A DNA stretch of 64,000 nt, taken from the NCBI GenBank assembly GCA_964422035.1, contig CAYQZQ010000001.1, positions 377,013 through 441,012 on the forward strand, in the 5' to 3' direction. The first letter of the stretch is position 1, and each line of letters begins with the position of its first letter. The notes beneath the pieces are model-generated. The model worked only from the letters and a program-made list of their open reading frames with translations, was not told where the DNA came from and ran no database searches. The translations under genes and the position numbers were made by a program. The DNA is from an uncultured Pseudomonadales bacterium. GTDB taxonomy: Bacteria > Patescibacteriota > Microgenomatia > UBA1400 > Chazhemtobacteraceae. Below, one piece after another: positions 1,430-15,807 of the stretch.

Positions 1430-1699
1430 TTAGGCATTAATTATAAGGGGCAGCAGAATAGCAGTGCCTAAAGCAGCTACAAGAAAGTACTCTAAGATGA
1501 CATACCAGTGGTGATCTTTGGATTTTAGGTGATGGATCATGCCCCAGAGGAAGTAAGCTAGTGACAAGCCGACTACTGCTATTTGTTGAAGATAACGATT
1601 AGTGTTGAAAAGCGAAACTAAAGAGGCGCCAACGACAAGAATTATGACTAAGACAAGAAAGTCTGGGATATGGATCTTGTGTGGTGAGTGTGACTTCAT
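1430..1699 (-). CDS. small integral membrane protein (89 aa, 3 predicted TM segments)
   Basis: Hydrophobic composition. It overlaps the CAP gene stop by 4 nt (translational coupling). Confidence 0.45.
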   Translation of the reverse strand: MKSHSPHKIHIPDFLVLVIILVVGASLVSLFNTNRYLQQIAVVGLSLAYFLWGMIHHLKSKDHHWYVILEYFLVAALGTAILLPLIINA

Positions 1700-2652
1700 A
1701 AGATAAGGCCTTGTTTGATTATGATAACTAGAATAATAACTATTCCCAGAAAGGTAACGTGAGCCCAGTTGCGGCCAGAGATACGAATGAGGTTATTTTT
1801 CCAAGTGATGTACCAGTCAACCACCAAGACGATGATTACCAAAAGGGCAAATGACATGGAGATAACTTTGGCAAGAGAGAAAGGATTAAACAAAGAAACT
1901 ACACTACTGGCTATCATGGGTTGCTGTATATCATCAAAATTGGCGGGTTTTTGGGGTGTGGGAGTAGGGGTTGGGTTAGGACTGGCCTGAGCTGTGGGAG
2001 TGGGGGTGTAGCTGGGAGTAAGCTGGGTTTCTTGAGCTTGAGCAGGAGGGATAACATTAGTCTGACCTGAGGCTACCTGAGGACTGCTGGTTTGAGGTGT
2101 GCCTAGCATCTGAACCACCAAAGTGGTTTCCTGGCCCAAAAGATTGCCGTCAACAACAGCGATGCCGATTTCTCTGTATTGGGGATTTAGTAAATTAGCG
2201 CGATGAGTGGGAGAGGCCATCCAGGCTTTGACAATGGTCTCTGGATTTTTAAAGTCTCGAGCTAAGTTTTCTCCGGCATGTAAGTAGTTATAACCGGCAG
2301 CTAAAACAAAATACCATGGTTTAGTACCGTCTGGAGCGGTGTGAGACCAGTAGTCTTTGGTGAACATGTCCGCTGCTTTACGGCGAGCAGCATCAGCCAG
2401 TTGAGGATTGTATTCCAGATTTGGCAGTCCCCTTTCCGCTCTTGTCTGGTTGGTTAAAGCAATGATTGTTTCAGGCGGAATTTGAGAAGCGTAACCTAAG
2501 ATGTGAGGATAGGCAAACTTGGCTAAAGAAAGAAAAGTTTGACTTAAGATAAGAAGAGTAACCAAAACTGCTAAAGAGGTGTGGTGAAGAAGTTTTGGCT
2601 TATGATTGTTGCTGTGGTGTGGAGTAAATAAGTGTTTTAATTTATCAAACAT
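1696..2652 (-). CDS. secreted CAP/SCP/PR-1 (YkwD-like) domain protein with PT-linker and C-terminal TM anchor
   Basis: N-terminal signal/TM segment. CAP signature 'YSHTAPDG...HAGENLARDFKNPETIVKAWMASPTHRANLLNPQYREIGIAVV'. A PT repeat (TPTPTAQASPNPTPTPTP) is followed by a hydrophobic C-terminus. Confidence 0.8.
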   Translation of the reverse strand: MFDKLKHLFTPHHSNNHKPKLLHHTSLAVLVTLLILSQTFLSLAKFAYPHILGYASQIPPETIIALTNQTRAERGLPNLEYNPQLADAARRKAADMFTKDYWSHTAPDGTKPWYFVLAAGYNYLHAGENLARDFKNPETIVKAWMASPTHRANLLNPQYREIGIAVVDGNLLGQETTLVVQMLGTPQTSSPQVASGQTNVIPPAQAQETQLTPSYTPTPTAQASPNPTPTPTPQKPANFDDIQQPMIASSVVSLFNPFSLAKVISMSFALLVIIVLVVDWYITWKNNLIRISGRNWAHVTFLGIVIILVIIIKQGLIL

Positions 2653-2682: not shown

Positions 2683-3867
2683 TCAAGCATCCTGATCAGA
2701 TTCGGCTGAAGATTGGCGAGCGGCAGATTGAGGCTGAGTAGTTGAAGGTTTGACACCTTTTAGGATAATTTTATCCAGGGTAAATGGAGAGAAGAAAGAG
2801 ATAATTTCTAGAGTGAAGATAGATAACTCAAAAGCAGAAGGAATATGATTGGTAATTAGATAGGCTCCAATACCGACCAAGACAGATTCTTTAATCAGCT
2901 GATTAAACATTTGTTGTTGAACTTGATCGACAAGATCAGAGGGAAGATTGTCTTGAACTGCTCTGTAACCTTTCTGTTTAATCTTGTTGAACCCAAACCA
3001 GAAGATGATACCACCAGTAGACAGGGCAGTAATCAGGTTTAAGGTTCGATTAGGTATACTGACATCACCGGTAAATAAACCGAGCTTGATTTGAGAGGGG
3101 AAATTACGAGTGAAATACCAAGCCAGAGCGATAAGAATTATAAAAAAGACAGCACTAGTAGGATGAAGTGTCTGTGGTAGCTTAGAAGAAGAGTTATTTT
3201 TAGAATATAGTTTGATAATGTAACTTAAGGTGTGCAAAAGTAAATAGGCAATAAGCAAAATACCGATGACTAAAAGAGCATTTTCTAAACCATAGTCAAC
3301 GGTTTGAGCAACCTTAGGGTAAGGAATCTTAAAAATTTTGTCTTTAATGGGGTAGTCTGGATATGGAATAAAGTCAAAAATGGCTGAGGAAGACAGTTTT
3401 TTGTGGTAAAAGTCAGTAAAAAAGAGGCGACCGATGGTAAAAAAGGTAGTAAATTGAACTGTAAAGTCAAAGACATAGAACAGAAAAGTGCGATCTCCCT
3501 TGGCAAATTTTTGTTTGATAATACTTTGTTGCTTTTTGTCGCTTTCAATATGTTCTATTTTTTGCTTAAGATCTTTAATGTGTGTGAGTTTGGCAATTCG
3601 TATAGCACGGACAGGGATCATTAAAATTGTCTGGCTGACTCCCAATAAAACTACGGAAATCCAGATACTATTAGTGAGAGAATATAAACCAAAGAGAATA
3701 CTGGCATAGAATCGGTATGTGCCACCAAAGAAAAAAGCCCAAAAAAGGAAAAGAATGACCAAAAGCAACAAGATGCTTTGAAGGGGAACTTTACCTACAA
3801 TATTACTTAGCCGCCAGCGATAAGTAACAGCAGAAGAATCTTGAGATGACGCAGAGTTTTTGGACAT
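2683..3867 (-). CDS. YidC/Oxa1-family membrane protein insertase-like
   Basis: Multi-TM protein. TM1 'SIWISVVLLGVSQTILMIPVRA' is followed by a charged amphipathic loop and 'RTFLFYVFDFTVQFTTFF', paralleling the YidC TM2-loop-TM3 core. There is a Q/S-rich C-tail. Confidence 0.5.
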   Translation of the reverse strand: MSKNSASSQDSSAVTYRWRLSNIVGKVPLQSILLLLVILFLFWAFFFGGTYRFYASILFGLYSLTNSIWISVVLLGVSQTILMIPVRAIRIAKLTHIKDLKQKIEHIESDKKQQSIIKQKFAKGDRTFLFYVFDFTVQFTTFFTIGRLFFTDFYHKKLSSSAIFDFIPYPDYPIKDKIFKIPYPKVAQTVDYGLENALLVIGILLIAYLLLHTLSYIIKLYSKNNSSSKLPQTLHPTSAVFFIILIALAWYFTRNFPSQIKLGLFTGDVSIPNRTLNLITALSTGGIIFWFGFNKIKQKGYRAVQDNLPSDLVDQVQQQMFNQLIKESVLVGIGAYLITNHIPSAFELSIFTLEIISFFSPFTLDKIILKGVKPSTTQPQSAARQSSAESDQDA

Positions 3868-3899: not shown

Positions 3900-6800
3900 T
3901 TATTGAGAGGGTTTTTTGAAAACAAGATATGTAAGTCCTATAAGAGAGAGCAGGACAACCAATAACCACCAGTACTGAGCTAGGAGTGAAGAAGAGTCAC
4001 TAGTTTCTGTTGGTTGATCTGATTGTGTGGGAGAAGGAGAGGTGTCTTGCTGGGCTAAAACTTCTCCTTGATCAATTTGATCGGAGCCTTGATCATTGTC
4101 TTTCTGGTTAGTGTCAGGCAAGGAAGTGTCAGCTAAAGCATACAAGTTGTTTAGTCGGTGAGTTGCATCAGTGGTGGTTTGAGCCCCTAAAACGTCTCCA
4201 CCGGTATCGCCTGCTCCACCCCCATCACTAGGCGGACTGGCTGGTGCAGGTTCTGAAAAGTTTTTGGAGAAGGTTTGGTTTGAGTATTCATCACTAACTA
4301 ATTTAGGTGAGCCAGAAGAGATGAGGCGGAAGTAGTAAGTGGTGCCTACATTTAACCCAGAGATCTTAAAGTAGTGAGTAGTAGTTTTGGATGAGGTGTT
4401 TTTCTCAGCCGTGGTGAAAGCGTAACCAAAGTTAGGATCAGATAGATCAGGAACAAGATGAGGAACCGTATCATAAACTACTCGCCCACTAGTAGGTCGA
4501 TCAGTTGTCCAGGAGATCTCGATTTCTTCAAAGCCAGTGGTTTGGTGAAACTGAGAGCTTAAGATGGCAGTAACTCCTACTTCAATTTCCTTTTCTGTTT
4601 GATTACCAGCTTTGTCAGTAGCCACAGCCTTGAGAATGTAATAGTCTAGAGGTAAAGACTTTGTCCCCCAAGGACTTGAGGTACTGCCTTGAAGTCCACC
4701 ATTGACTTGTTCATAGGCATAGCTAATCGTTTCTACTTTAGAAAGAGAGTCTGTAGCATTAACTTCTAGTGGTTGGTCTCCAGACAAAGTAGCGTTATTA
4801 ACAGGATTTACCCAATCAAGAGTTTTGGGGGGAGTAGTATCATAAATTATTTCTTCTAGATGAGCAGTCGTTTCAACATTGCCTGCTTTATCCGTAGCCT
4901 GTGCCTTGAAATCAAAAATACCATCTTGAAGAGGAGTAATTTCAAATTGCCAGTTAAAAGGCTCTTTGTGTTCAGTATTTTCAATTGAGTTTATTTGGGT
5001 CCAATTTTCTTTAAGATCTTCATCACTGTTTAGTTTCCCATATATATCAACATGGTCAACAGTATTTTGAGGAGTATCTGTGGATTGACCGGATAAAGTT
5101 ATTGGGGTTTCTTCTGGCCCACCAAAGATCATTTTATTGTTGCTATTAAAGACAGATTCGGGAGGCGTGTTATCAATAGTTACACAAGCATAATCAACCG
5201 AATCTCCAGTCCCGGTGTTACTCATTGGATCCCTGTTGCCAGCCTCATCTCTTGCTGCTAATCGGATGACGTAGTTTCCATCATCTAAGCTTTCTGTATC
5301 AAGTATGTGAGACACTGAGTTGCTACTTCCACTTTCTTGCCAAACACGGTTGGAAAAATTCCAAGTTGATTCTGTGTTGCAGGTGCCATCATCAGGATTT
5401 AGAGAGAGATTGTAATGACTTAAATTTTCTTCAGTAATAGTGCCAGTGATATTTACAACATCTGACAGGTACCCGCTTAAGGGAGAAGTTATTTCTACTC
5501 TAGGAGGTGTGTTATCTACTATGAAGGAACGAGAGTTCGACCAAAGAGAACAGTTGCCAGCTTGATCACAGGCTCTGATTCTCCACCAATAAGTACTTTC
5601 CGGAGTGCCAGGAGCAAAGCCAGTCTGAGGGTGACGAGTCACATCTAGGTAATCCTTAGAGTACCTAATGCTAGCATTAGGATTTTCTTCTGGATCAGTT
5701 AAATATAAACGATATTCATAGCGGATAGGAGAAGATGGGTCCGAAACGGGTGACCAGTCAACATATAAATTTGAAGAATTTAAATACTGTCCTGGATTGG
5801 GAAAAATCAGATCTGGAACAGACGGGGCTTGTCGATCTAGTATTACGCTGCACCAGCCACTGGAATTTTCACTTTCATTGCCTGCAAGATCAACGGCCCA
5901 AACTCGATATTTATATTCCCCATCTTGATCTCTAATTTTTCCTGTAATCAAGGATGAGGAAAGGTGTTTGAAATCATTCTTATCTTTTATGTCATATCTG
6001 TAGTAGTCTAGATCAGATTCCAAATTATCATTCCAATCTATTGAAATCTGACGATTATTTGTATATCCACTACATCCTAATATCTCACTCTGATGATCTT
6101 TAATTGTTATGCCGGTGGGGGCTGAAGGAGAAGTTCTATCTACTGTAAACACACATGGATCATCAAAACTTCCAGTATTAACTACCGGCGACTGACCGAC
6201 TGGATTATCATTTTCATCATAAGCAACGACTTGATAAGTGTATGAATTTTCGCGAGTGGCTCCAGTGGTGTAAATTGCTATATCAGTGATTTCGAACTCG
6301 ACGCCAGAATGTGACAAGGCATACTGCTCAGGATCATAAGCACTACCAGAACGCCACGAGTTTCCATTCCATGTGTAGCCAGTGATCAAGTAGTAGTCAG
6401 CATTTGATACTGTGGTAAATTTAAGAACTTGAAGGGCTTTGCCAGATACAGAAGTGTCATTGGTATAAATATCACATTGTCCTATTGGAGTATCGTAACC
6501 ATTGATACCAGTTTCTGAGCCATAAGCAAAATCCATTTGTGTTTTTTGTACCTCAAACTGAATGTCTTCTGACATGGCTAGCTCGCTATATCCGCCATCT
6601 ATCACTTCGACAATTCCTATTGAGATTGTATATTCTCCAGCAGGCAAGGTAGTAGCAAAAGGAGTGGTAATTCCTGTTTCATCTTCTAGAGGAGAAAGAT
6701 CCGACAATGTAAAGCCTGTCGATGGGCCAAAATAGGCAACCCCACCAGTGATGGTGTCAAAGCTCGTCCAGTCTCCTCGACTATCACCAGGAGAAATTGG

Positions 6801-7373
6801 GTAGTATATCTCTTGACCGACTACACCTACCCCATCTTTTTTAAGAAGGGCTTTGTATCGAATTGGTGTTGAATCATTAATTCCATCTACTTGACTAATT
6901 TTAAACTCTGCCTGTCCTTCAATATTATTGATAAATGAGTCAAGACCTGTGTAATTCAGTTTGAAGTTGGGCCCTGGCGCTTCTCCAACAACTACCTGAG
7001 TTAAGTGACAGGCTTGAGTAACAATTTGGTCATTTTCTTTGTCAACAGTAGTGGTGGAGATGCATCCTTCTGCATCATCATCACCGGACTCTGAATAAAG
7101 ACGCCACTGGTTACTAGACTCACTAAAGTAATACATACCTTTGATCTGATCTTCAGTTATACCTGCACTATCAAGATCATCCTGGTTGTATCCCACGGTT
7201 ATCTCAACTGGAAAATTAATATCACCCGTCTCTTGAATTTCATAGTAGGAACCTAGGGGGGACTCAACTAAAGTGCTGGTATTTGGCTTATCTGTAAATT
7301 TGGAGATAACGATGGTGCCGATTGAGTCTTGATCAAAAATTGTAATAGGTCTAAAGAAGCGCTGTCTTCCCAT
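3900..7373 (-). CDS. large cell-surface protein with repeated Ig-like/FN3-like domains and C-terminal '..LLAQYWW'-TM anchor (downstream part of a frameshifted gene)
   Basis: 1157-aa ORF with no signal peptide of its own. It contains repeated 'DNTPP....ATD.AGN' Ig-like domain motifs and a D/Q/S-rich disordered stretch. It ends 'SSLLAQYWWLLVVLLSLIGLTYLVFKKPSQ'. It overlaps the upstream ORF 7268..8086 by 105 nt in a different frame. Confidence 0.8.
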   Translation of the reverse strand: MGRQRFFRPITIFDQDSIGTIVISKFTDKPNTSTLVESPLGSYYEIQETGDINFPVEITVGYNQDDLDSAGITEDQIKGMYYFSESSNQWRLYSESGDDDAEGCISTTTVDKENDQIVTQACHLTQVVVGEAPGPNFKLNYTGLDSFINNIEGQAEFKISQVDGINDSTPIRYKALLKKDGVGVVGQEIYYPISPGDSRGDWTSFDTITGGVAYFGPSTGFTLSDLSPLEDETGITTPFATTLPAGEYTISIGIVEVIDGGYSELAMSEDIQFEVQKTQMDFAYGSETGINGYDTPIGQCDIYTNDTSVSGKALQVLKFTTVSNADYYLITGYTWNGNSWRSGSAYDPEQYALSHSGVEFEITDIAIYTTGATRENSYTYQVVAYDENDNPVGQSPVVNTGSFDDPCVFTVDRTSPSAPTGITIKDHQSEILGCSGYTNNRQISIDWNDNLESDLDYYRYDIKDKNDFKHLSSSLITGKIRDQDGEYKYRVWAVDLAGNESENSSGWCSVILDRQAPSVPDLIFPNPGQYLNSSNLYVDWSPVSDPSSPIRYEYRLYLTDPEENPNASIRYSKDYLDVTRHPQTGFAPGTPESTYWWRIRACDQAGNCSLWSNSRSFIVDNTPPRVEITSPLSGYLSDVVNITGTITEENLSHYNLSLNPDDGTCNTESTWNFSNRVWQESGSSNSVSHILDTESLDDGNYVIRLAARDEAGNRDPMSNTGTGDSVDYACVTIDNTPPESVFNSNNKMIFGGPEETPITLSGQSTDTPQNTVDHVDIYGKLNSDEDLKENWTQINSIENTEHKEPFNWQFEITPLQDGIFDFKAQATDKAGNVETTAHLEEIIYDTTPPKTLDWVNPVNNATLSGDQPLEVNATDSLSKVETISYAYEQVNGGLQGSTSSPWGTKSLPLDYYILKAVATDKAGNQTEKEIEVGVTAILSSQFHQTTGFEEIEISWTTDRPTSGRVVYDTVPHLVPDLSDPNFGYAFTTAEKNTSSKTTTHYFKISGLNVGTTYYFRLISSGSPKLVSDEYSNQTFSKNFSEPAPASPPSDGGGAGDTGGDVLGAQTTTDATHRLNNLYALADTSLPDTNQKDNDQGSDQIDQGEVLAQQDTSPSPTQSDQPTETSDSSSLLAQYWWLLVVLLSLIGLTYLVFKKPSQ

Positions 7374-8086
7374 TCAAACTCAACGGCAGCTAGATCTTGA
7401 AGTTTTCCTTTATCCCATCCGATAGGGTTGATGTAGTCAACTAAGCCCAGACCTTCATCATCTGATTGATGATGGATGGAATCTTCGATTTCAGCCAGAT
7501 TAGTAGTACCCCACTTGTTACCTTGAGCATTAATGGAGTTGGAACTATTGTTTTCAATAGTGGTAAGATCGCCAGTGATAGTATTGCCAGTTAAAGTTGT
7601 ATCTTGTTGAGAGTTAATCTGAACAGTGATGTCTTGGCTGATTAAGTGGCTGTTTTGAATTTTTAAGTTACTGGCACCATCGATGATTATGGCTGGACCA
7701 GCTTGAGTTTCAACTTTTAAGTTCTGGATTGTAAGGTCTGATGGGTCTTGTAAAATAATAGAGTCTGTTAGAAGGGTATCTGGGCCGGCACCAGTTAAGG
7801 TAATACCAGAGTGATTAGAGTCAATGATAAGTTTTTCTGAGTATTGACCGGCTGTAACTTGAACAGTGCCTTTTTGAGCAAACAAACTGTCAAGAGCCTC
7901 TTGAATTGAAGTGTGACAGGGAGTTTGACCAGAGCAAGAACCATCTTGGCTAACGTAAACTGTAGGATCGGATGCAATGATACGAGTAGAAGCGATGAAG
8001 AGTAATGAAAATAAGAAAAGGAGGGTGACAAAAATAAATAAAGGAGATTTGAGAGAAAGAAAGGATTTTAATTTAAGCTTTTTCAC
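7268..8086 (-). CDS. N-terminal signal peptide + right-handed parallel beta-helix module (upstream part of the same frameshifted surface-protein gene)
   Basis: Signal peptide 'MKKLKLKSFLSLKSPLFIFVTLLFLFSLLFIAS'. Beta-helix repeats are present ('TLTGAGPDTLLTDSIILQD', 'LKIQNSHLISQDITVQINSQQDTTLTGNTITGDL'). There is no anchor, and the ORF ends inside the overlap with 3900..7373. Confidence 0.7.
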   Translation of the reverse strand: MKKLKLKSFLSLKSPLFIFVTLLFLFSLLFIASTRIIASDPTVYVSQDGSCSGQTPCHTSIQEALDSLFAQKGTVQVTAGQYSEKLIIDSNHSGITLTGAGPDTLLTDSIILQDPSDLTIQNLKVETQAGPAIIIDGASNLKIQNSHLISQDITVQINSQQDTTLTGNTITGDLTTIENNSSNSINAQGNKWGTTNLAEIEDSIHHQSDDEGLGLVDYINPIGWDKGKLQDLAAVEFEWEDSASLDLLQFLIKTQSAPSLSPNLQISQIPAL

Positions 8087-8125
8087 AGGTACTAAGGCAA
8101 TATTATATGCTTCCGTCTTAGATGG

Positions 8126-11100
8126 TCAAGAAATGAAGAGCAGGTAGACTAGCGCACTAAAGGATAGAGTAATTATGATCGCCCACCAGTATCGAGCCAG
8201 AAAACCTTGTTGTGATGTCTGAGTATCTTGCTGATCAGTGGCTTGATCTGTTTCTGTTTGAGAAGTGGTATCTTGATCGTTTTGATCGGCTTGATCTTGA
8301 GTATCTTTTTGATCTTCTGCACCAAGGATTTGCCCGCCGGTACCAGTACTGCCAACATAGTCAAAACCTTCGATGAATTGCTCTTCACTAACCGGCTGGC
8401 CTTGTGGAGCAGTTTGGACTTGAGGTTTGTCACCAACCAAATCTGACTTATTGCCGGCAGGATCAATGTTTTGCATTAGATAGAAGTATTCTTGGTCAGG
8501 CTGAGGAATAGCGTTCTCCCAAGAGTCAGCGGTGTCAGCAGTAACATCCAAGGCAGCTATAAGATTGCCAGTGCCGGCATCAAAACCTTCTTGGTCTGAG
8601 CGGTAGATGTAAACTTTGTAGGATTGGTCATGATCTGGGTTGCGCCATTGAAGTCTGTAAGTTTGTGGTCCAATTTTGGCTTTGGAGTAGCTGTTAGGAG
8701 CAGGAGGTGGAGTGCGGTCAACAGTAGTGGAAGTCTCGTCAAAGGCAGAGTTACCGGCGTTGTCGTAGGCGGTAGTTTTAAAGTAGAACTTAGCTTCCTC
8801 ATTAATTTCAGAGGAGGTAATTTGATAGGTCTTGGAGTGGGCGGTAAACTCATCTAGAGTTTGCCAGCCTTCACCTTCTTTGTGGTACTCAAGAATAACT
8901 TTATCTAGCCCTGAGCCGCCAGCGTCTAAAGCTGAATACGAGATCTTAAAGTTATCGGTTTTTTTGTATTCAGGTAAGTTGACAATGTCTATACTAGGAG
9001 CAGTATTGTCAACGGCTAAAACTGGAGTGGAAAGGCCAGCAAAGATACCGATAACTAAGAGAAGACCTAAGAGTTTTGCAAAGAATTTTTTATCGATTAA
9101 CCTGAGTAAAAGGCCACCGAAGATAAGAGCAATGCTTAAGATTAACCAGCGGGTAGCGGAGCCGGTAGCGGCACCCAGGACCTCACCTTCGGTGCTGGCA
9201 CCTAAGACATCACCTTCATCTATGTCCAGTGAGCCGCCGACCCCGAAGGATGAACCGATAGTGAAGGGATCAATTACTGTGTCTGATTCATAAATCTCTT
9301 CGTTTCCTCCCAGACCAGAGGCGATGGCGATATTGGTATGCTCTCCGTCAATTACGGAGGTGATTTTGATTTCAAAATTAAGCGTAAATGTTTCACCAGG
9401 CTGGATATCTCCAATGGACCATTGATATGGATTTTCTCCTCCTCCAGTTGGAGTGACTGTCTGAGTGGAGTCATCGGGTGCAGTAACAGTGCCCTGATTG
9501 TCAATAATTTCAAAATGATCAAAGGGAGGCTGGGTATCATCGATTACTACATCATAGGCGGGACCTTGACCGTTGTTGGTAACCTCTAGGGTGTACAAAA
9601 TGGTATCACCTACCCCTAAGGTTTCCCCTTTACGATCATTGGTCTTAGTCAGGACTAACTCGGGTGGAGCGTAGTTGCCAAAGAGTCTTTCTGGTATATC
9701 ATCACCAGATGTGACTTTTAGGATATAACTTCCATCGGCCTGGTGGCCTTCACCTCCATAATCAGCGTTCGGCCTGGTTTGGATCCAGCCTTTTTGCAAT
9801 ACTTCGCTGATAATATAGGTGCCAGCGGTAAGACCAGTGAAGTCGGCATTGCCACTCTCATCAGTGACAAGTTCACAATACTCTCCATTAACATTTCCAT
9901 CAGGACACTCTGGAGGAGATTCGCTATCTTGCTTGTCTAAACGGATAGTCCAACCAGATAGATATTCTTCTTCTCCTGAATCATACATATGACTTTCATT
10001 TTGATCGTTGAATTTACGAGTTTCTATAGTTACTAGGGTAAAATTGCCAAAATCAGCTGTTTTTTCATCTCCACCTTCCAAGACAACGGTGTGACATTGA
10101 TTTTCTCCTCCAGGATAGGTTTGGATAACATCACCATTGATTGACTCACATACCTGGTATTCTCCGGGTGGGAGTTGGAAGGAGTAGTTACCTTGCGCGC
10201 CAGTTAAAGTATTGGCCGTATTCTCTTCTCCTTCCCCGGGAATGAAAATATTCCATTCAGGCACACCCGGTTCCCCTTCTTCTCTTTGACCATTACCATT
10301 TAAATCATCCCATTTGACACCCTTGATATAGCCGTAATCGATGTTGCCGAATTTGAGCCAGCCATTTTTCTGGCCAGATTCGGTAATTTGGCTGTGCCAA
10401 CAAACCGGTCCTTCTTGTTCTTTGTTGGGTGATTCATTGGCTACAGCGGTGCCGGTACCGGTTTCTATTCCGTCATTATCAATAGCTTCAGAGCCTTCAT
10501 TTGGCCCAGTTTGAGTCCAATCTTGCTGGCTAACTTCGCAGACGTAATAATCACCAGGAGTTAAGTTTTCAAAACGGAATTGGCCTGGATTGTCGGTCTC
10601 GCCAGTAATTGACTGACCCTGGACTCCTTGACCAGGGCCTCCGCTTGCCTTGTAAAGTCGTACTGTCCAACCATCTAATCTTTCTTCAGTTTCATTCTGG
10701 TGAATACCATCGGTGTTGACATCGTAATATTTTCTGCCTTGAATAACACCGAGTTCAAAGTTGCCAAACTGTACCCACCCCCTGTCTTCTGCTGAGGTGA
10801 GGGTAACCTGATGGCAGTAAGTGCCATTTTGATGCATTGGTCCGGTACTGGGTTCTGTTTGCATCCAGCCTGATTGTGGAGTTTCGCAAACATAGTAGGT
10901 GCCTGGAACCACGTTTTCAAAACGGAATTGACCTTTGTCTACATCTCCAGCGGTGGTGCTGTCGTCACCGGTTGTCATACTATCAATAAAGCTCCAGTCG
11001 TCGTTATATAAAGTAATCTGCCAGTCGTTCAAGCGATTTTGGTCGATTCTTTCATCTTCTTCAAAGTCGCCGCTGGCATCAACATCGTTGTATTTTCTGC

Positions 11101-14100
11101 CTTGGATACTGGCATATTGAGTATTTACAAAATCATTTTTTTCACTATCTTCGCCTGCTTGAAGCTCCAGATCTTTTTGTGTTGATGTTAAACTCTTCCA
11201 ATTATCTCTGGTCTCTTCCATGAGGCGATAAAGTCCAGCGACTAAGCCACCGAAATGGAAATAACCGTTCTCATCAGTATGGGTTGAGTTATGAAGAGAG
11301 CATTCACCTTGACTTAAGCATTGATAGAGGTCTATCTGCCAACCCAACACTTTAGTTTGATCTTGATCGGTATCAAGACTGCCATCTTGATCTTCTAGCT
11401 TGTAGCCAGAGATGGAACCGAGGCGGTTGCCAAAATCTTTTTCTATTGGCTGCTCTATAGTTACTTGGACATCGTAGTAGCTAGGGGCTGATGGCTGGGT
11501 TTGCTTCCAACCAGTTTGAAGAATCTCAAGTACCTGATATTCGCCAGGTAGGACCTTAGCTTGATAGTAACCATCTTGATCGGTGGTATAGATTTGATCG
11601 GTGACGTCGTAGATACGGACGGTTAACTGGCCCTGATTGTCGGCATACCATGAGGAGGGGTTGGAGCCGGCGTTATCTTGATCAAAGATTCTGAAGTTAG
11701 CGGTGGAACCCTCACCTTTAATAACTGTCTTGTATAAGTGTGGTGAGTTGTAGCCGCCCCAGACAACATCTTGATCATTGATGACTAGATCAAGTTGTCT
11801 GTCTCCCCGGGTAGGATCATCGGCCATATCAAGCTGAGTGCTCCAAGAATCATCAGAGTAGTATTCGGCATCTACCTGGCGGAATTCTTTATTGGTCCAC
11901 TGCCCTTCTACTTCAATTAAATAGTAGCGGCCGTCTATTAGAGTCTTGGAGCTGTCTTGCCCATTCATATCAGCACTATCTACCTGGAGAGATTCAAAGG
12001 ACTTTTGCTGTTGGGGATGGACTACAATCTGCCAACCTTGGATACCAGGCTCTCCTTGATCTCTGAAACCATCTCCGTCAGCGTCGTTGTATTTGTAGCC
12101 GGATACTTGACCTTTTTGTAAGGCGTTAAAAGCGACACAGTGATAGGTTTCTCCGTATTGAGGATTATTAATCCATTCCCAGTTATCATAGTGGAAGACG
12201 TCACTGTTGCAGTAGAACTCGGAGCTGTAATCATTTTGATCATCTCCACTGAAAGGAATTAGAGGGGAATAACTGTCAGGAAAGACTTCTCTTACCTCAA
12301 TTCTGCTGCCGATTTTATCAAGATTGGAAATCTCTACAGTTTCATGGCTTGCAAAAGTCTGCCATGGATGGCTTAAGAGATCAGTGCTAGTTTCAGTTTG
12401 TTGACTACCCGCTCCTTTAGGTCCCCACTGAAATTGCCACATAGGCTCAATGGAACAACTGGAATGACTGTCGACCCAGTCTTGGGCGGTTGTAGCGGTA
12501 ATATTTGGACCACCTGTTCCCCAGTTGGGTAGGTCGCTTTCCTCTTCACAGACTACTTTAGTAGCTTGGAGTTTAACCGGCGGCTGACATTCGTAGACGT
12601 CAAGCTCTAGTTCACCTTCATTATCACTCATACCACCTTGGTCATCCCAATCGGTACCAAACCAATGATCGTAGCGGTCACCGATTAAGAACTGAACATC
12701 AGAACCGTTTGAGTAGAAGTGTTTAGTATAAACATGTTCTTGATTGTATGGCCCCCAATCTACTACTCCAACATTGCCGGTACCCCAATCACTTAACAAA
12801 GCGTGGGCGGCAAAATCTGAAGTATATGAACCACCGTACAAAGCTTGAAGACCAATATTTGGTTTTAAGTTGGTCCAGCCGTCAATTGAGGTGTAGCCGG
12901 CATCGGCACCAGCCTGTTCTTTGCTGCTGGGAGTAAAAGTGCCTGAAGCTTCTAGTAGATAGTCTTTTCCGGATTCAAAAATGGAAAGCATTATACCGCC
13001 AGGGTCGGTGGAGAAGACGGTGAAAGGTTCTTGATTTACTTTAATCGGATTGGTGCCTGTGGGACACTGGTGCTGACCATCATAGATTGGAACCAGCTGA
13101 CAAGATTGAGTACAGAAGTTTTGACCAGAAATGGTGCCATCTTGACCATCACATTGCTCCTCTGCTTCTTTTATTCCGTTACCGCAAACAGGTAATGGTT
13201 CAGGTTCTCTAGGTTCACAAACTTGCCAAACGGCATCGATAGCATCGATGTCATAGCCATCAGCATTATTAGCATGGAGAGAATAATCGGTGATATCAGT
13301 TAAACGGACATATTGTATCCATGACCAATTGTTCAAACTGGCGATATCTAACAAGCCAACCCCATTACCACCATCTTTGTTGGTAACTTGACCTAAATAC
13401 TGCCAGTTAGTTCCATCTTGACTAACTTCCACCTTGGCTTTTTCAAATGGATATGAGGTTCTTCCGTTGATTATTTCATGGAAAGATAGATCGTGAGCCT
13501 CTTGGTCGATAACTGGATGGACAAATTTAACAGTTAGATCGCCTTCTACTCCGAGGCTAAAAAATTGACTATCTGGGGAACCGAGGGCTGAGTCTGGATT
13601 GGTACGTTCAGAGCTAACAAAGGAGCCATCTTTTCTGGTTCCTTGGTCTGACAAGATAAATTCATCTGCCCAGGCTTTACCTGGGGTACACATTTCTTCA
13701 CACTCATAATCGACAACTTTTATCCAGGTGAAAGCTACTTGGCCGTATTTATCAAAACTACCCCACTCATCATCTAATGATGTAATGGTAATAGTTTGAA
13801 CCCCTGAATAATCACTAACATCAAAGCTGTGAGTTTTCCACTCTTCACTTCCTCCAGTTTCTCCAGAATCAAGCCAGCGATATACAAGATCATTACCAAT
13901 TTTAACTTCAAAAGAATCAGCACCAGAAATACCATCTAAAGCTCGCAGTCGCAGTTCTTTAAGAGGAGAATTGCCAAAATCCAAGATTAGGCTGGCTGAA
14001 GGATCTCCGTCTGGCTCGTAAACAACTTTACAGTTACCATCTTCACAAGGAGTGCCACTTCCCCAGTTTCCACCACTAGCATCAGGCTCAACTGGTCCCC

Positions 14101-15076
14101 AGCCGTTTAAGTTGTATCCTGATTCACTTGTTTCGTCTCCGATGTTGACATAATCAGTTGATTGGTTAGCATAAATTGGATCTCCACAGGCTAATGGTTC
14201 TCCAGAGATATCTTCGAGATCTGGTTGTGTTTTGTGAAATGAGACGTGGGAGATATCTTGACACTCATCACCTTCAGAAACAGTAGCAGTTTGGGTGTTT
14301 AAGCCGGATACATCATGACATGTATCATCCGAAGGTACGTTTACTTTGGTTTGGCCGTACTTAATACAAACTTGATCAATAATATAACCTTGATCAGTAG
14401 TATGTGATTTGCTGGTATCTGAATCAGTCAATTCAAATTTCTGCCAGTCACCACCATGAGGACAGACATTGTTGTCAGTAAAAGTAGTAGAAGCTACCAA
14501 AACTCCACCTAACAAAATCTCAACTAAATAATCAGGTCGATATGTTCCATCTAACTGATAGGAATAAAATAAACCACCGTCTGAGTCGGTGGTTACTTGA
14601 ACTTCATCTCTTACTTTAGGCTCGTCTTGGGAGCTGACTACTAAAGTATAAGTAGTATCTGGTTGATAGTCAGAGCCGGTAATGATAACTGTTTCGCTGG
14701 GAGTATAGTCATCTTTATCAGTATCTAAAGAGGGGTTTAGTTGGGCACTGGATTGACTGTTAGGAGAGTCTTTAAGATCCGGCTGAGTTTGGGGAGTGGG
14801 AGTTGGAGTGGGAGTAACTTCAACTGATTGAGTTGTAGTAACTTCAGGCTCTTTTGTGGGAGTTGGAGTTGGAGTTGGAGTGGGAGTAGTTTCGGTTACT
14901 TCAATGGTTGGGGTGGGAGTGGGGGTAGTTTCTTGGGTAGGTGTAGGGGTTGGTTCACTAGCATATGCACGTGAGGCTAAAATAGGAGAAAGAGTGGAGT
15001 TTAAGATCAAGACACCAGAGAGAGTATAGGAGATAAAGCGGTGCAGGCTTTGGCGCTGTCTTTTGTTGAATATCAA
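8126..15076 (-). CDS. giant (2316 aa) cell-surface adhesin-like protein: signal peptide, PT-linker, multiple SdrD-B/Cna-B-type repeats, DUF11-like domain, internal TM hairpin, Ig-like domains, C-terminal '..FLARYWW'-TM anchor
   Basis: Signal peptide 'ILNSTLSPILASRAYA'. There are long TPTPTPT linkers. Repeats such as 'GYKYNDADGDGFRDQGEPGIQGWQIVV' and 'IQGRKYYDVNTDGIHQNETEERLDGWTVRLY' are Cna-B/SdrD-B-like. 'LVLTKTNDRKGETLGVGDTILYTLEVTNNGQGPAYDVVIDD' is DUF11-like. The C-terminus is 'SQQGFLARYWWAIIITLSFSALVYLLFIS'. Confidence 0.85.
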   Translation of the reverse strand: MIFNKRQRQSLHRFISYTLSGVLILNSTLSPILASRAYASEPTPTPTQETTPTPTPTIEVTETTPTPTPTPTPTKEPEVTTTQSVEVTPTPTPTPQTQPDLKDSPNSQSSAQLNPSLDTDKDDYTPSETVIITGSDYQPDTTYTLVVSSQDEPKVRDEVQVTTDSDGGLFYSYQLDGTYRPDYLVEILLGGVLVASTTFTDNNVCPHGGDWQKFELTDSDTSKSHTTDQGYIIDQVCIKYGQTKVNVPSDDTCHDVSGLNTQTATVSEGDECQDISHVSFHKTQPDLEDISGEPLACGDPIYANQSTDYVNIGDETSESGYNLNGWGPVEPDASGGNWGSGTPCEDGNCKVVYEPDGDPSASLILDFGNSPLKELRLRALDGISGADSFEVKIGNDLVYRWLDSGETGGSEEWKTHSFDVSDYSGVQTITITSLDDEWGSFDKYGQVAFTWIKVVDYECEEMCTPGKAWADEFILSDQGTRKDGSFVSSERTNPDSALGSPDSQFFSLGVEGDLTVKFVHPVIDQEAHDLSFHEIINGRTSYPFEKAKVEVSQDGTNWQYLGQVTNKDGGNGVGLLDIASLNNWSWIQYVRLTDITDYSLHANNADGYDIDAIDAVWQVCEPREPEPLPVCGNGIKEAEEQCDGQDGTISGQNFCTQSCQLVPIYDGQHQCPTGTNPIKVNQEPFTVFSTDPGGIMLSIFESGKDYLLEASGTFTPSSKEQAGADAGYTSIDGWTNLKPNIGLQALYGGSYTSDFAAHALLSDWGTGNVGVVDWGPYNQEHVYTKHFYSNGSDVQFLIGDRYDHWFGTDWDDQGGMSDNEGELELDVYECQPPVKLQATKVVCEEESDLPNWGTGGPNITATTAQDWVDSHSSCSIEPMWQFQWGPKGAGSQQTETSTDLLSHPWQTFASHETVEISNLDKIGSRIEVREVFPDSYSPLIPFSGDDQNDYSSEFYCNSDVFHYDNWEWINNPQYGETYHCVAFNALQKGQVSGYKYNDADGDGFRDQGEPGIQGWQIVVHPQQQKSFESLQVDSADMNGQDSSKTLIDGRYYLIEVEGQWTNKEFRQVDAEYYSDDSWSTQLDMADDPTRGDRQLDLVINDQDVVWGGYNSPHLYKTVIKGEGSTANFRIFDQDNAGSNPSSWYADNQGQLTVRIYDVTDQIYTTDQDGYYQAKVLPGEYQVLEILQTGWKQTQPSAPSYYDVQVTIEQPIEKDFGNRLGSISGYKLEDQDGSLDTDQDQTKVLGWQIDLYQCLSQGECSLHNSTHTDENGYFHFGGLVAGLYRLMEETRDNWKSLTSTQKDLELQAGEDSEKNDFVNTQYASIQGRKYNDVDASGDFEEDERIDQNRLNDWQITLYNDDWSFIDSMTTGDDSTTAGDVDKGQFRFENVVPGTYYVCETPQSGWMQTEPSTGPMHQNGTYCHQVTLTSAEDRGWVQFGNFELGVIQGRKYYDVNTDGIHQNETEERLDGWTVRLYKASGGPGQGVQGQSITGETDNPGQFRFENLTPGDYYVCEVSQQDWTQTGPNEGSEAIDNDGIETGTGTAVANESPNKEQEGPVCWHSQITESGQKNGWLKFGNIDYGYIKGVKWDDLNGNGQREEGEPGVPEWNIFIPGEGEENTANTLTGAQGNYSFQLPPGEYQVCESINGDVIQTYPGGENQCHTVVLEGGDEKTADFGNFTLVTIETRKFNDQNESHMYDSGEEEYLSGWTIRLDKQDSESPPECPDGNVNGEYCELVTDESGNADFTGLTAGTYIISEVLQKGWIQTRPNADYGGEGHQADGSYILKVTSGDDIPERLFGNYAPPELVLTKTNDRKGETLGVGDTILYTLEVTNNGQGPAYDVVIDDTQPPFDHFEIIDNQGTVTAPDDSTQTVTPTGGGENPYQWSIGDIQPGETFTLNFEIKITSVIDGEHTNIAIASGLGGNEEIYESDTVIDPFTIGSSFGVGGSLDIDEGDVLGASTEGEVLGAATGSATRWLILSIALIFGGLLLRLIDKKFFAKLLGLLLVIGIFAGLSTPVLAVDNTAPSIDIVNLPEYKKTDNFKISYSALDAGGSGLDKVILEYHKEGEGWQTLDEFTAHSKTYQITSSEINEEAKFYFKTTAYDNAGNSAFDETSTTVDRTPPPAPNSYSKAKIGPQTYRLQWRNPDHDQSYKVYIYRSDQEGFDAGTGNLIAALDVTADTADSWENAIPQPDQEYFYLMQNIDPAGNKSDLVGDKPQVQTAPQGQPVSEEQFIEGFDYVGSTGTGGQILGAEDQKDTQDQADQNDQDTTSQTETDQATDQQDTQTSQQGFLARYWWAIIITLSFSALVYLLFIS

Positions 15077-15147: not shown

Positions 15148-15807
15148 CTATTTGTCAACAAATTCAGCAAAAACTAATAATCTTTTGAGGGTAGTTCCAG
15201 GCGGAGAGCAAGTTTGAAGAATTAAGACGTTTCCAGTGGTATTTCTTACATACATAGAGACTTCTTCTGGAGCGACTACCTGTTTATCAACCACTCTATA
15301 GTCATATTGGAGTTTATTGAAAAAGATATGGATTTCATCGCCTTTTTCAAGTTTTCGCAACAGAAAGAAGGGAGCGTTGTAGCTTCTGATGTTGGCAAAA
15401 GAATCGGTAGAGTGACCAAAGATAAAAACGGGGCCGGCCTGATCAGGTAGAGAGCTGTTTTGTGCATGGGCAGCACCGTTCTCCTGCAGGACAGGTAGAT
15501 ACTCCTGTTTGTCGGATGAGTCGATGTTGGGAGCAACTTTGGTATTAATACCGATCTTGGGGACGATAAGGGAAAACTTATAATCTTTGGGGACTAGAGC
15601 TTTTTTTTGCAGTTGATAGTCAAAATCAGAGATGCTGTTGGCTTGTGAGGGCTTGATGATTACATGAGTATCATTATCAGTTAACTGATTTAATCGATAA
15701 TCGACCTCTTGGTTGATAACAGGAAAAAAGATCTTGAAAAGTATGGCAAAACCAATCAAAAAGATAAGCGTACCAACAAAATTGAGATGACGTGTAATGT
15801 AGCCCAC
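15148..15807 (-). CDS. sortase-family transpeptidase (membrane-anchored)
   Basis: N-terminal TM segment. His motif 'VFIFGHSTD', Cys motif 'VLILQTCSPPG' and a downstream Arg ('TLKRLLVFAEF') fit the sortase His-Cys-Arg triad spacing. It lies immediately upstream of the giant surface protein on the same strand. Confidence 0.7.
   Translation of the reverse strand: MGYITRHLNFVGTLIFLIGFAILFKIFFPVINQEVDYRLNQLTDNDTHVIIKPSQANSISDFDYQLQKKALVPKDYKFSLIVPKIGINTKVAPNIDSSDKQEYLPVLQENGAAHAQNSSLPDQAGPVFIFGHSTDSFANIRSYNAPFFLLRKLEKGDEIHIFFNKLQYDYRVVDKQVVAPEEVSMYVRNTTGNVLILQTCSPPGTTLKRLLVFAEFVDK

Follow-up and report, generated by a model that had tools for sequence, protein, structure and literature searches.

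Substrates of sortases are defined by a C-terminal sorting signal, and the cell surface of bacteria of the Candidate Phyla Radiation (CPR) is thought to mediate their episymbiotic lifestyle. Proteins that are taken apart at internal signal peptides are familiar from the structural polyproteins of flaviviruses, hepaciviruses and alphaviruses, which are cut by the signal peptidase of the host. In the pneumococcal IgA1 protease and in ZmpB, ZmpC and ZmpD, an N-terminal LPXTG motif is followed by two hydrophobic segments, the second of which is the proposed site of a second signal-peptidase cut (PMC3518915, citing Bender & Weiser 2006). A sortase family is nearly ubiquitous in the Microgenomates-type group of the CPR (PMC6744442), CPR genomes encode peptidoglycan synthesis (PMC7143001), and the domain DUF11, now named CLIPPER, serves fibrillar adhesins as a CnaA-like stalk domain (PMC12617251). 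Here we analyze a 64,000-nucleotide stretch of an uncultured Microgenomates genome (the window; contig CAYQZQ010000001.1, positions 377,013 to 441,012), in which a giant open reading frame (ORF) carries a sorting signal in its interior, joined directly to a segment resembling a signal peptide. We read this ORF as a genuine and recurrent fusion of two neighbouring Microgenomates genes whose product is processed as a polyprotein by sortase and signal peptidase, a reading to which we assign a probability of roughly 60%; its architecture and fusion parts are near certain.

The giant ORF (8126..15076, on the minus strand, as are all window features from nt 2683 upwards unless marked otherwise) runs from a TTG start to a TGA stop and encodes 2316 aa, identical to library protein P0009 on a 725,544-bp NCBI contig. 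It comprises an adhesin module, an anchor/signal-peptide hairpin and a second module (module 2), and at the junction the order is ...GDVLGASTEGEVLGAATGSATR-WLILSIALIFGGLLL-RLIDKKFFAK-LLGLLLVIGIFAGLSTPVLA|VDNTAPSIDIVNLPEYKK.... A variant of the sortase-type sorting motif, LGAATG, lies within GEVLGAATGS (aa 1967-1972, nt 9178-9161) and is followed by hydrophobic segment 1, the 15-aa WLILSIALIFGGLLL (aa 1977-1991, nt 9148-9104; Kyte-Doolittle hydropathy, KD, 2.04), which forms the stop-transfer part of the sorting signal. The basic and putatively cytoplasmic loop RLIDKKFFAK (aa 1992-2001, nt 9103-9074) serves at once as the tail of the sorting signal and as the n-region of a signal peptide, and leads into hydrophobic segment 2, the 20-aa LLGLLLVIGIFAGLSTPVLA (aa 2002-2021, nt 9073-9014; KD 2.33), which supplies the h- and c-regions. 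VDNTAPS follows directly, with a predicted signal peptidase I cut, VLA|VD, after nt 9014. The window thus shows the hydrophobic segment followed by positive residues that belongs to the definition of a cell wall sorting signal (CWSS), and the signal is not at the extreme C-terminus, as 315 residues lie beyond Lys2001. The parts of a type I signal peptide are likewise present (DKKFFAK as n-region, LLGLLLVIGIFAGLSTP as h-region and V-L-A|V at positions -3/-1), in an internal stretch of the ORF (aa 1995-2021) rather than at its N-terminus, with ATC where an ATG would be expected.

A sequence-only reading of this DNA had pointed to such an anchor-like and signal-peptide-like pair about 350 aa from the C-terminus, with no stop and no in-frame ATG, GTG or TTG between the two. 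We recovered the peptide as quoted in the giant ORF; the motif begins 350 aa from the end, and a scan of codons 1977-2021 returned zero stops and zero ATG, GTG or TTG codons. The transmembrane (TM) hairpin that was also proposed is supported by prediction: AlphaFold2 (AF2), given a 9-sequence alignment, models helices at aa 1974-1993 (model residues 46-65) and aa 1996-2015, with pLDDT of 57-80. A hydropathy scan of the entire 2316-aa protein (Kyte-Doolittle, 19-residue window, threshold 1.6) identified only three hydrophobic regions, namely the two adjacent junction segments and a C-terminal YWW anchor. Because there are only three such regions, and because the arrangement recurs in 75 of 128 classifiable family members (see below), we consider it to go beyond chance. 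Antisense to the junction runs a 153-aa ORF with a TTG start (8832..9293, plus strand), almost certainly a mechanical ORF within the adhesin gene.

A search with the C-terminal 388 aa returned one fused protein (P0001, laid out as DUF11, anchor, signal peptide and module 2) and seven stand-alone proteins of 311-333 aa, which begin with M-K-K and a signal peptide. Segment 2 aligns with the signal peptides of P0002-P0008. The window sequence I-D-K-K-F-F-A-K-LLGLLLVIGIFAGLSTPVLA|VD aligns with M-I-K-K-L-F-K-T-VFAFILSLVLFSSGVLA|VD of P0003, such that the basic tail of the internal anchor corresponds to the n-region of the partner's signal peptide, and the codon aligned with the start methionine of the stand-alone homologues is ATC (Ile1994). 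In the four split loci that we read directly, the stand-alone gene lies right behind an adhesin gene that ends in LGA[AS]TG, a hydrophobic segment, a basic tail and a stop codon, and in three of the four the two genes overlap by 8 nt (ATGNTTAA). Locus L003 holds a sortase gene, a gene for a 1305-aa SpaA/SdrD_B/CLIPPER adhesin ending in GEVLGASTGADTLW-TM-ERKKYA, and P0002 (MLKKLS...), with the 8-nt overlap ATGCTTAA. In L004-L007 a DUF11 protein ending in GEVLGAATGSKTFW-TM-RKKND precedes P0003 (overlap ATGATTAA), and in L013 an adhesin ending in QVLGAATGSETYW-TM-RRRKGVKNV precedes P0025 (overlap ATGTTTAA). L012 carries a sortase gene and a gene for a 770-aa protein ending in GQVLGAATGSPIGW-TM-KIKRIK..., followed after a 36-nt gap by P0021.

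The closest syntenic locus to the window is the split locus L003. The sortases of the two loci are 52% identical, their adhesins are homologous at the N-terminus and in the C-terminal SdrD_B/CLIPPER/anchor region, and their module 2 sequences share 53% identity and are sisters on the tree described below. Compared with L003, the window reads ATC where L003 has its start ATG, lacks the Shine-Dalgarno-like purine run, has most of the upstream tail deleted and runs both frames together; this synteny identifies the window ORF as the fused counterpart of a two-gene arrangement. A fusion of two ancestral genes, one of the options raised from the sequence alone, therefore holds as an evolutionary statement: the genes are separate in L003, L004-L007, L012 and L013, where they overlap by 8 nt or are spaced by 36 nt, and the basic loop aligns with a Met-Lys-Lys n-region.

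Searching 1.84 billion cluster representatives with a profile, we obtained 492 matches below 1e-30 and classified the best 150 together with the first eight proteins, where each member stands for one cluster at 50% identity. Of the 128 family members that could be classified within the best 150 matches, 75 are fused (median 1689 aa) and 53 are split (median 313 aa, starting with M-K-K and a signal peptide); the classified set also held one fused protein truncated at its N-terminus, three undetermined fragments and 24 unrelated fn3-repeat proteins. Named cluster members of the relatives belong to Candidatus Roizmanbacteria, Candidatus Shapirobacteria, the 'Microgenomates group' and the 'Patescibacteria group', and the database names of these relatives are merely hypothetical, 'SdrD B-like' or 'DUF11 domain-containing'. 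Fused loci were read in DNA for P0001 (L001, L002 and L010, from three assemblies), for a 706-aa ORF in L009, for P0146 (L014/L015) and for P0044 (L016). The fused junction reads LRKRKTSQIFKN in L001, with ACG in place of ATG, and KLGKKGKKIFKLLKS in L009, with ATA in place of ATG. A scan of genome contigs yielded one locus, truncated at a contig end and doubtfully labelled 'Pseudomonadales', and a scan of metagenomes yielded three loci, of which L009 and L010 were used. P0130, a candidate 82%-identical split relative of fused proteins, was set aside as unreliable, as it sits at the edge of a 1.2-kb contig.

Fused and split forms are interspersed on a neighbour-joining tree built from module 2, with at least 22 state changes by parsimony among 124 sequences, as compared with a mean of 39 changes when the labels were shuffled. 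At least three of the state changes are backed by directly read loci (the window versus L003, the P0001 clade versus P0003, and P0013/P0014 versus P0025). The sequence-only reading had called for a comparison of orthologues, on the argument that a uniformly continuous ORF would speak for a genuine single protein; neither state proved uniform, as both are common and interleaved on the tree. Its further option, a read-through of two genes, is not supported, since the junction contains no stop, the start codon and the Shine-Dalgarno sequence are gone, and fused forms are the majority among family representatives. We accordingly rejected stop-codon read-through, there being no stop codon of any kind in the junction to read through.

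Both targeting signals have been retained in the fused proteins. Ahead of segment 1, 34 of the 76 fused proteins carry LGA[AS]TG, 32 carry LPxTG (mostly LPATG) and six carry LPxAG, the motif being absent from four (one of them truncated). Typical members from Roizmanbacteria read EEGQVLGASTSLPATGASPAW-TM-KKGK-signal peptide, which amounts to a textbook LPXTG signal at the equivalent position. The loop between the hydrophobic segments is rich in K/R wherever the segmentation worked, spanning roughly 3-24 aa with a median net charge of +5 in the fused relatives. Segment 2 of the fused forms also closely resembles the signal peptides of the split forms: alanine occupies position -1 in 63/74 fused and 43/50 split sequences, valine or alanine occupies position -3 in 59/74 and 41/50, the median length from the last n-region charge to position -1 (h- plus c-region) is 19 versus 20 residues, and the mean hydropathy of the h-region is 2.45 versus 2.44. 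There is no drift of segment 2 towards a longer, uncleaved TM helix, and these unchanged parameters argue that the cleavage site has stayed under selection after fusion. Furthermore, the window and L001, L003, L004, L010, L012, L014 and L016 each have a sortase gene that is adjacent or at most a few kb away. The architecture, its conservation, the polymorphism between fused and split forms and the linkage to sortase genes are thus established directly.

Several observations on individual loci and motifs accompany this survey. In the Roizmanbacteria-type locus L014 (4886-13384, and the same in L015), the gene for the fused LPATG-type protein P0146 has a divergent signal peptidase I gene (Peptidase_S26) on its upstream side, and its 3' end is overlapped by a sortase gene. 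P0083, P0096 (SEVLGTSVSRTSAGEKLFFLSLLL) and P0139 have kept the VLG motif, the hairpin and module 2 and have lost the xTG sortase motif; they may be permanently membrane-anchored variants. A short motif, G-[DEQ]-[VI]-L-G-A, precedes each surface-protein anchor region in the window (nt 9208, 9181, 8329 and 4193): two copies stand ahead of LGAATG, one in front of the acidic spacer of module 2 and one in the downstream adhesin. [VIL]LG is found upstream of the sorting motif in 76/76 fused relatives and GxxLG is kept in module 2, and the motif could be a domain end-cap or the recognition site of another enzyme.

The upstream part of the ORF has the composition of a fibrillar adhesin. Its N-terminus comprises a basic n-region and a moderately hydrophobic stretch leading to AYA|SE, which stays under the KD threshold of 1.6; it aligns with the N-terminus of the L003 adhesin (MTKKQQRTGQKILSIFSSFVLLFNTF...PAYA) and is a putative signal peptide (aa 1-39, nt 14960..15076, ...SRAYA|SEP). 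Pfam searches identified five SdrD_B/SpaA stretches and a DUF11/CLIPPER domain, the latter being the last folded domain of the module (aa 1807-1921, nt 9314..9658; PF01345, 4.2e-10, and TIGR01451). Directly upstream of the adhesin gene lies a sortase gene (15148..15807; Pfam Sortase, 2.2e-20), whose product scores 40.6 bits against the TIGR01076 sortase_fam model (cut-off 39.35) and under the cut-off for all sortase class A-F models. The motifs FGHST, LQTC and KRLLV are readable in it, corresponding to the catalytic His, the Cys in TLxTC and the Arg. An exact look-up of this sortase and of the giant protein found no contigs on record.

Module 2, the 295 aa that follow segment 2, begins with two FnIII-like beta-sandwich domains (aa 2028-2119 and 2128-2204, nt 8465..8995), both modelled by AF2 with pLDDT >90. 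Foldseek matched them to tandem FnIII pairs (E ~5e-8) and returned these generic pairs only, with nothing enzymatic, such that the structure gives no function for module 2; Pfam and NCBIfam searches gave it no family and no protease match. A nearly invariant lysine, Lys2132 (nt 8683-8681), is part of Y-[SG]-K where the second FnIII domain begins, and is kept in 120/124 sequences. It belongs to no known pilin motif such as YPKN. Also conserved are a DxAGNxS motif and a GxxLG ahead of the spacer, the window form of the latter being GQILGA (nt 8329-8318). Around GQILGA begins a disordered, acidic spacer rich in D/Q/T (aa 2219-2289, nt 8210..8422; pLDDT <50), which leads to the C-terminal membrane anchor YWWAIIITLSFSALVYLLFIS (aa 2296-2316, nt 8129..8191; KD 2.17, an AF2 helix). 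A terminal hydrophobic run is present in 125/128 relatives, and a sortase motif near this last TM segment in 0/128; the window anchor likewise has none. A lysine in LPEYK(N) was considered as a pilin-like acceptor and rejected, as it is not conserved across relatives. The sequence-only reading had ascribed the same architecture to module 2 and to the separate adhesin downstream, which holds in part: the two share an acidic spacer and an LA[QR]YWW anchor (38% identity over 68 aa, E 5e-5) as well as weak similarity of fn3-like repeats, and they are not orthologous modules.

Combining these results, we chart a model for the fused ORF in which gene 1 would be a sortase-substrate fibrillar adhesin ending in a sorting signal (LGAATG, hydrophobic segment and basic tail), and gene 2 its obligatory downstream partner, which would supply a signal peptide, a pair of FnIII-like domains, an acidic spacer and a TM anchor at the C-terminus. 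A sorting signal closes, and a signal peptide opens, with basic residues on the cytoplasmic side of the membrane, so that joining the two would give a topologically consistent hairpin (out-in-out, positive-inside) with no further adaptation, and where the genes overlap by 8 nt in A-rich lysine codons a small indel would be enough to join the frames. The N-terminal signal peptide would begin Sec export of the ~1930-aa adhesin, segment 1 would halt transfer with the K/R loop remaining inside, segment 2 would re-initiate translocation for module 2, and the last TM segment would anchor module 2 in the membrane. The adjacent sortase would then cut LGAAT|G and pass the adhesin to the wall, and signal peptidase I would cut VLA|VD, releasing the same mature, membrane-anchored FnIII protein as is made from split genes, with a predicted N-terminus of VDNTAPSIDIV... 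(peptide VDNTAPSIDIVNLPEYK). After both cuts a hairpin of ~50 aa would be discarded. Identical products from fused and split forms would explain why lineages switch freely between the two states. Fusion would, moreover, ensure 1:1 co-delivery of both products at one translocon, and would single out module 2 as working together with the sorted adhesin.

Several points weigh against this model. We infer the topology, both cleavages and the role of module 2, and for the processing as a whole the basis is the conservation of motifs and the neighbouring genes. AF2 models the hairpin with only moderate confidence (pLDDT 57-80). LGAATG is non-canonical, with its leucine one residue further from the threonine than in LPXTG; the NCBIfam LPXTG-anchor model is silent on the window protein, and the window sortase matches no defined class. 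Three of the 75 full-length fused relatives have no TG motif of any kind, which indicates that sortase cleavage is not universal. A K/R tail follows the last TM segment in 121/128 relatives but is missing from the window protein. In addition, P0130 is a piece of a fused gene cut off at a contig edge, and other representatives counted as split may be so too.

A stable protein with three TM segments would result if the hairpin were a permanent anchor between two extracellular modules, left uncut or cut by one enzyme only. The predicted hairpin, the non-canonical LGAATG and the loss of the TG motif from three fused relatives are in line with this, as is the fact that an internal signal sequence is not always reachable for signal peptidase. 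However, a sortase-type motif is retained in 72/76 fused proteins, (V/A)-x-A is as frequent as in true N-terminal signal peptides and the h-region has not lengthened; with sortase genes adjacent, and with split homologues showing that both parts work as separate polypeptides, we regard a permanent anchor as unlikely. A sortase might alternatively join Thr1971 of the adhesin to module 2, with the N-terminus freed by signal peptidase or Lys2132 as the acceptor, excising the hairpin and leaving the adhesin on a membrane-anchored FnIII stalk rather than on peptidoglycan. By a Rosetta-stone argument, the constant adjacency or fusion of the adhesin and module 2 fits such a ligation, and so do the long spacer and TM anchor of module 2, its lack of a sortase motif of its own, and the one lysine kept in 120/124 sequences at the start of the second FnIII domain. 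Yet the mature N-terminal residue is variable (A, V, I, G, S, T or F), the lysine beside LPEY is not conserved, a conserved lysine in a beta-strand can be purely structural, and a conventional acceptor exists, given that CPR genomes encode peptidoglycan synthesis (PMC7143001). We therefore consider ligation improbable; if true, sortase and signal peptidase would together carry out a natural form of protein splicing, and the outcome would be a CPR-specific mode of surface display.

Two further explanations concern the ORF itself. Two proteins might still be made from it, either from an internal start at the junction or through slippage, ribosomal or transcriptional, on its A6 run (GAT AAA AAA TTC), where a -1 shift would end after ~25 codons, and an in-frame Met is indeed kept in 18/76 fused loops. 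The window, however, has no ATG, GTG or TTG at aa 1977-2021 and just a weak AGG upstream of ATC1994, as opposed to the AAGGAAG or GGAAAG before the ATG of split loci, and in the zero frame the A6 run does not match the canonical heptamer X XXY YYZ. Separate translation is for these reasons highly improbable, and a programmed frameshift on the A6 run was rejected, as it does not fit this heptamer and nothing was found in its support. Finally, the merging of two real genes could be an artefact of assembly or sequencing, or a recent, pseudogene-like read-through. The neighbouring window adhesin looks frameshifted (ORFs 7268..8086 and 3900..7373), showing that the locus is not free of disruptions; still, splitting the ORF again would take a change of frame as well as a fresh start codon, fused forms dominate among independent assemblies, and three of these assemblies yielded one and the same fused protein. 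The chance of an artefact or recent read-through is to our mind negligible, and sequencing or assembly error in particular was rejected as effectively refuted by the fused majority and the codon evidence. A fusion that is processed by both sortase and signal peptidase would account for the free switching between states and the flanking genes for processing enzymes, and would explain why both motifs are retained and the parameters of the signal peptide unchanged. The suggestion from the sequence alone that the hairpin is a processing site is probably right as to processing, with the adjacent sortase and signal peptidase I, rather than a rhomboid protease, as the most likely enzymes. For a rhomboid site we found nothing in favour, and the sortase and signal-peptidase motifs cover the conserved features.

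The surroundings of the fused gene offer several side observations. The next adhesin gene (3900..8086) is split over two frames, whose ORFs overlap by 106 nt: one (7268..8086) encodes a signal peptide and a beta-helix/NosD-like region, and the other (3900..7373) encodes Big_13/fn3 domains, an acidic spacer and an LAQYWW anchor, with no signal peptide. The two are probably one frameshifted gene, be it a pseudogene, a sequencing error or a programmed shift. Between the giant ORF and this gene (8086..8128), the TGA of the former (8126-8128) is followed 13 codons on, in the same frame, by the GTG start and signal peptide of the latter (VKKLKLKSFLSLKSPLFIFVTLLF...), forming a second junction of a TM anchor and a signal peptide with one stop between them; the frames could agree by coincidence (1 in 3). 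In L004 the gene next after module 2 encodes a CAP-domain protein, and a further CAP-domain gene lies near the fused gene in the window (1696..2652); between the latter and the adhesin cluster, the window encodes a 394-aa multi-spanning membrane protein (2683..3867) that matched no Pfam or NCBIfam family. Beside the DUF11/module-2 pair in L001 (5489-9771), L004 (4105-8888) and L016 (15127-17671) stands a conserved trio of genes for a Peptidase_M73 protein (camelysin/TasA-like), an S24/SipW-like signal peptidase and a lamin-tail-domain protein, an arrangement reminiscent of the TasA-SipW fibre operon.

In a large family of proteins from uncultured Microgenomates, then, the sorting signal lies in the interior, joined to the signal peptide of a conserved partner, and lineages have repeatedly switched between one ORF and two genes. 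Our search of the literature on sortase sorting signals in CPR/Patescibacteria found no description of internal sorting signals, of this architecture or of this partner protein, and the fused anchor/signal-peptide architecture is apparently undescribed so far. If dual processing is true, this would be, to our knowledge, the first bacterial polyprotein resolved by sortase and signal peptidase. The analysis also identifies an unannotated partner of sorted CPR adhesins, consisting of a tandem FnIII module, a spacer and a TM anchor, and it nominates LGA[AS]TG as a candidate non-canonical sortase motif, testable in a peptide assay (peptides GEVLGAATGSAT, GEVLGAATGSATR and GEVLGASTSLPATGAS). Searches for anchors that are confined to C-termini would be expected to miss an internal sorting signal.

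With respect to canonical Gram-positive CWSS proteins (SdrD/Cna-type and CLIPPER adhesins), the window protein shares a putative N-terminal signal peptide, the SdrD_B/SpaA/CLIPPER stalk, a candidate tripartite signal and the adjacent sortase, and some of its relatives carry a true LPATG; it differs in that the window clade has LGAATG, the signal is internal, and its basic tail is also used as the n-region of the signal peptide that follows. The pneumococcal Zmp proteins are the closest precedent, following by analogy the same logic: a sortase motif away from the C-terminus, two hydrophobic segments of which the second has a proposed signal-peptidase site, and a large domain after the hairpin that is proposed to be exported separately. 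In the Zmps, however, the motif stands near the N-terminus after a short leader and an M26 protease lies beyond the hairpin, whereas in the window the motif comes at aa 1967, after a ~1930-aa adhesin, and is followed by an FnIII module with its own TM anchor. The two share no sequence relationship, no fused/split polymorphism has been described for Zmps, and the hosts are Firmicutes in one case and CPR bacteria in the other. Viral polyproteins similarly use alternating stop-transfer and signal sequences to make several membrane or exported products from one ORF; they belong to eukaryotic viruses and the endoplasmic reticulum, while in the window one of the cuts would be a sortase transpeptidation in a bacterial membrane. 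As in Rosetta-stone fusions, two proteins occur either as adjacent, translationally coupled genes (with the 8-nt ATGNTTAA overlap) or as one ORF, implying a functional link, but here the fusion joint itself consists of two targeting signals, and the fused protein would be expected to be taken apart after export.

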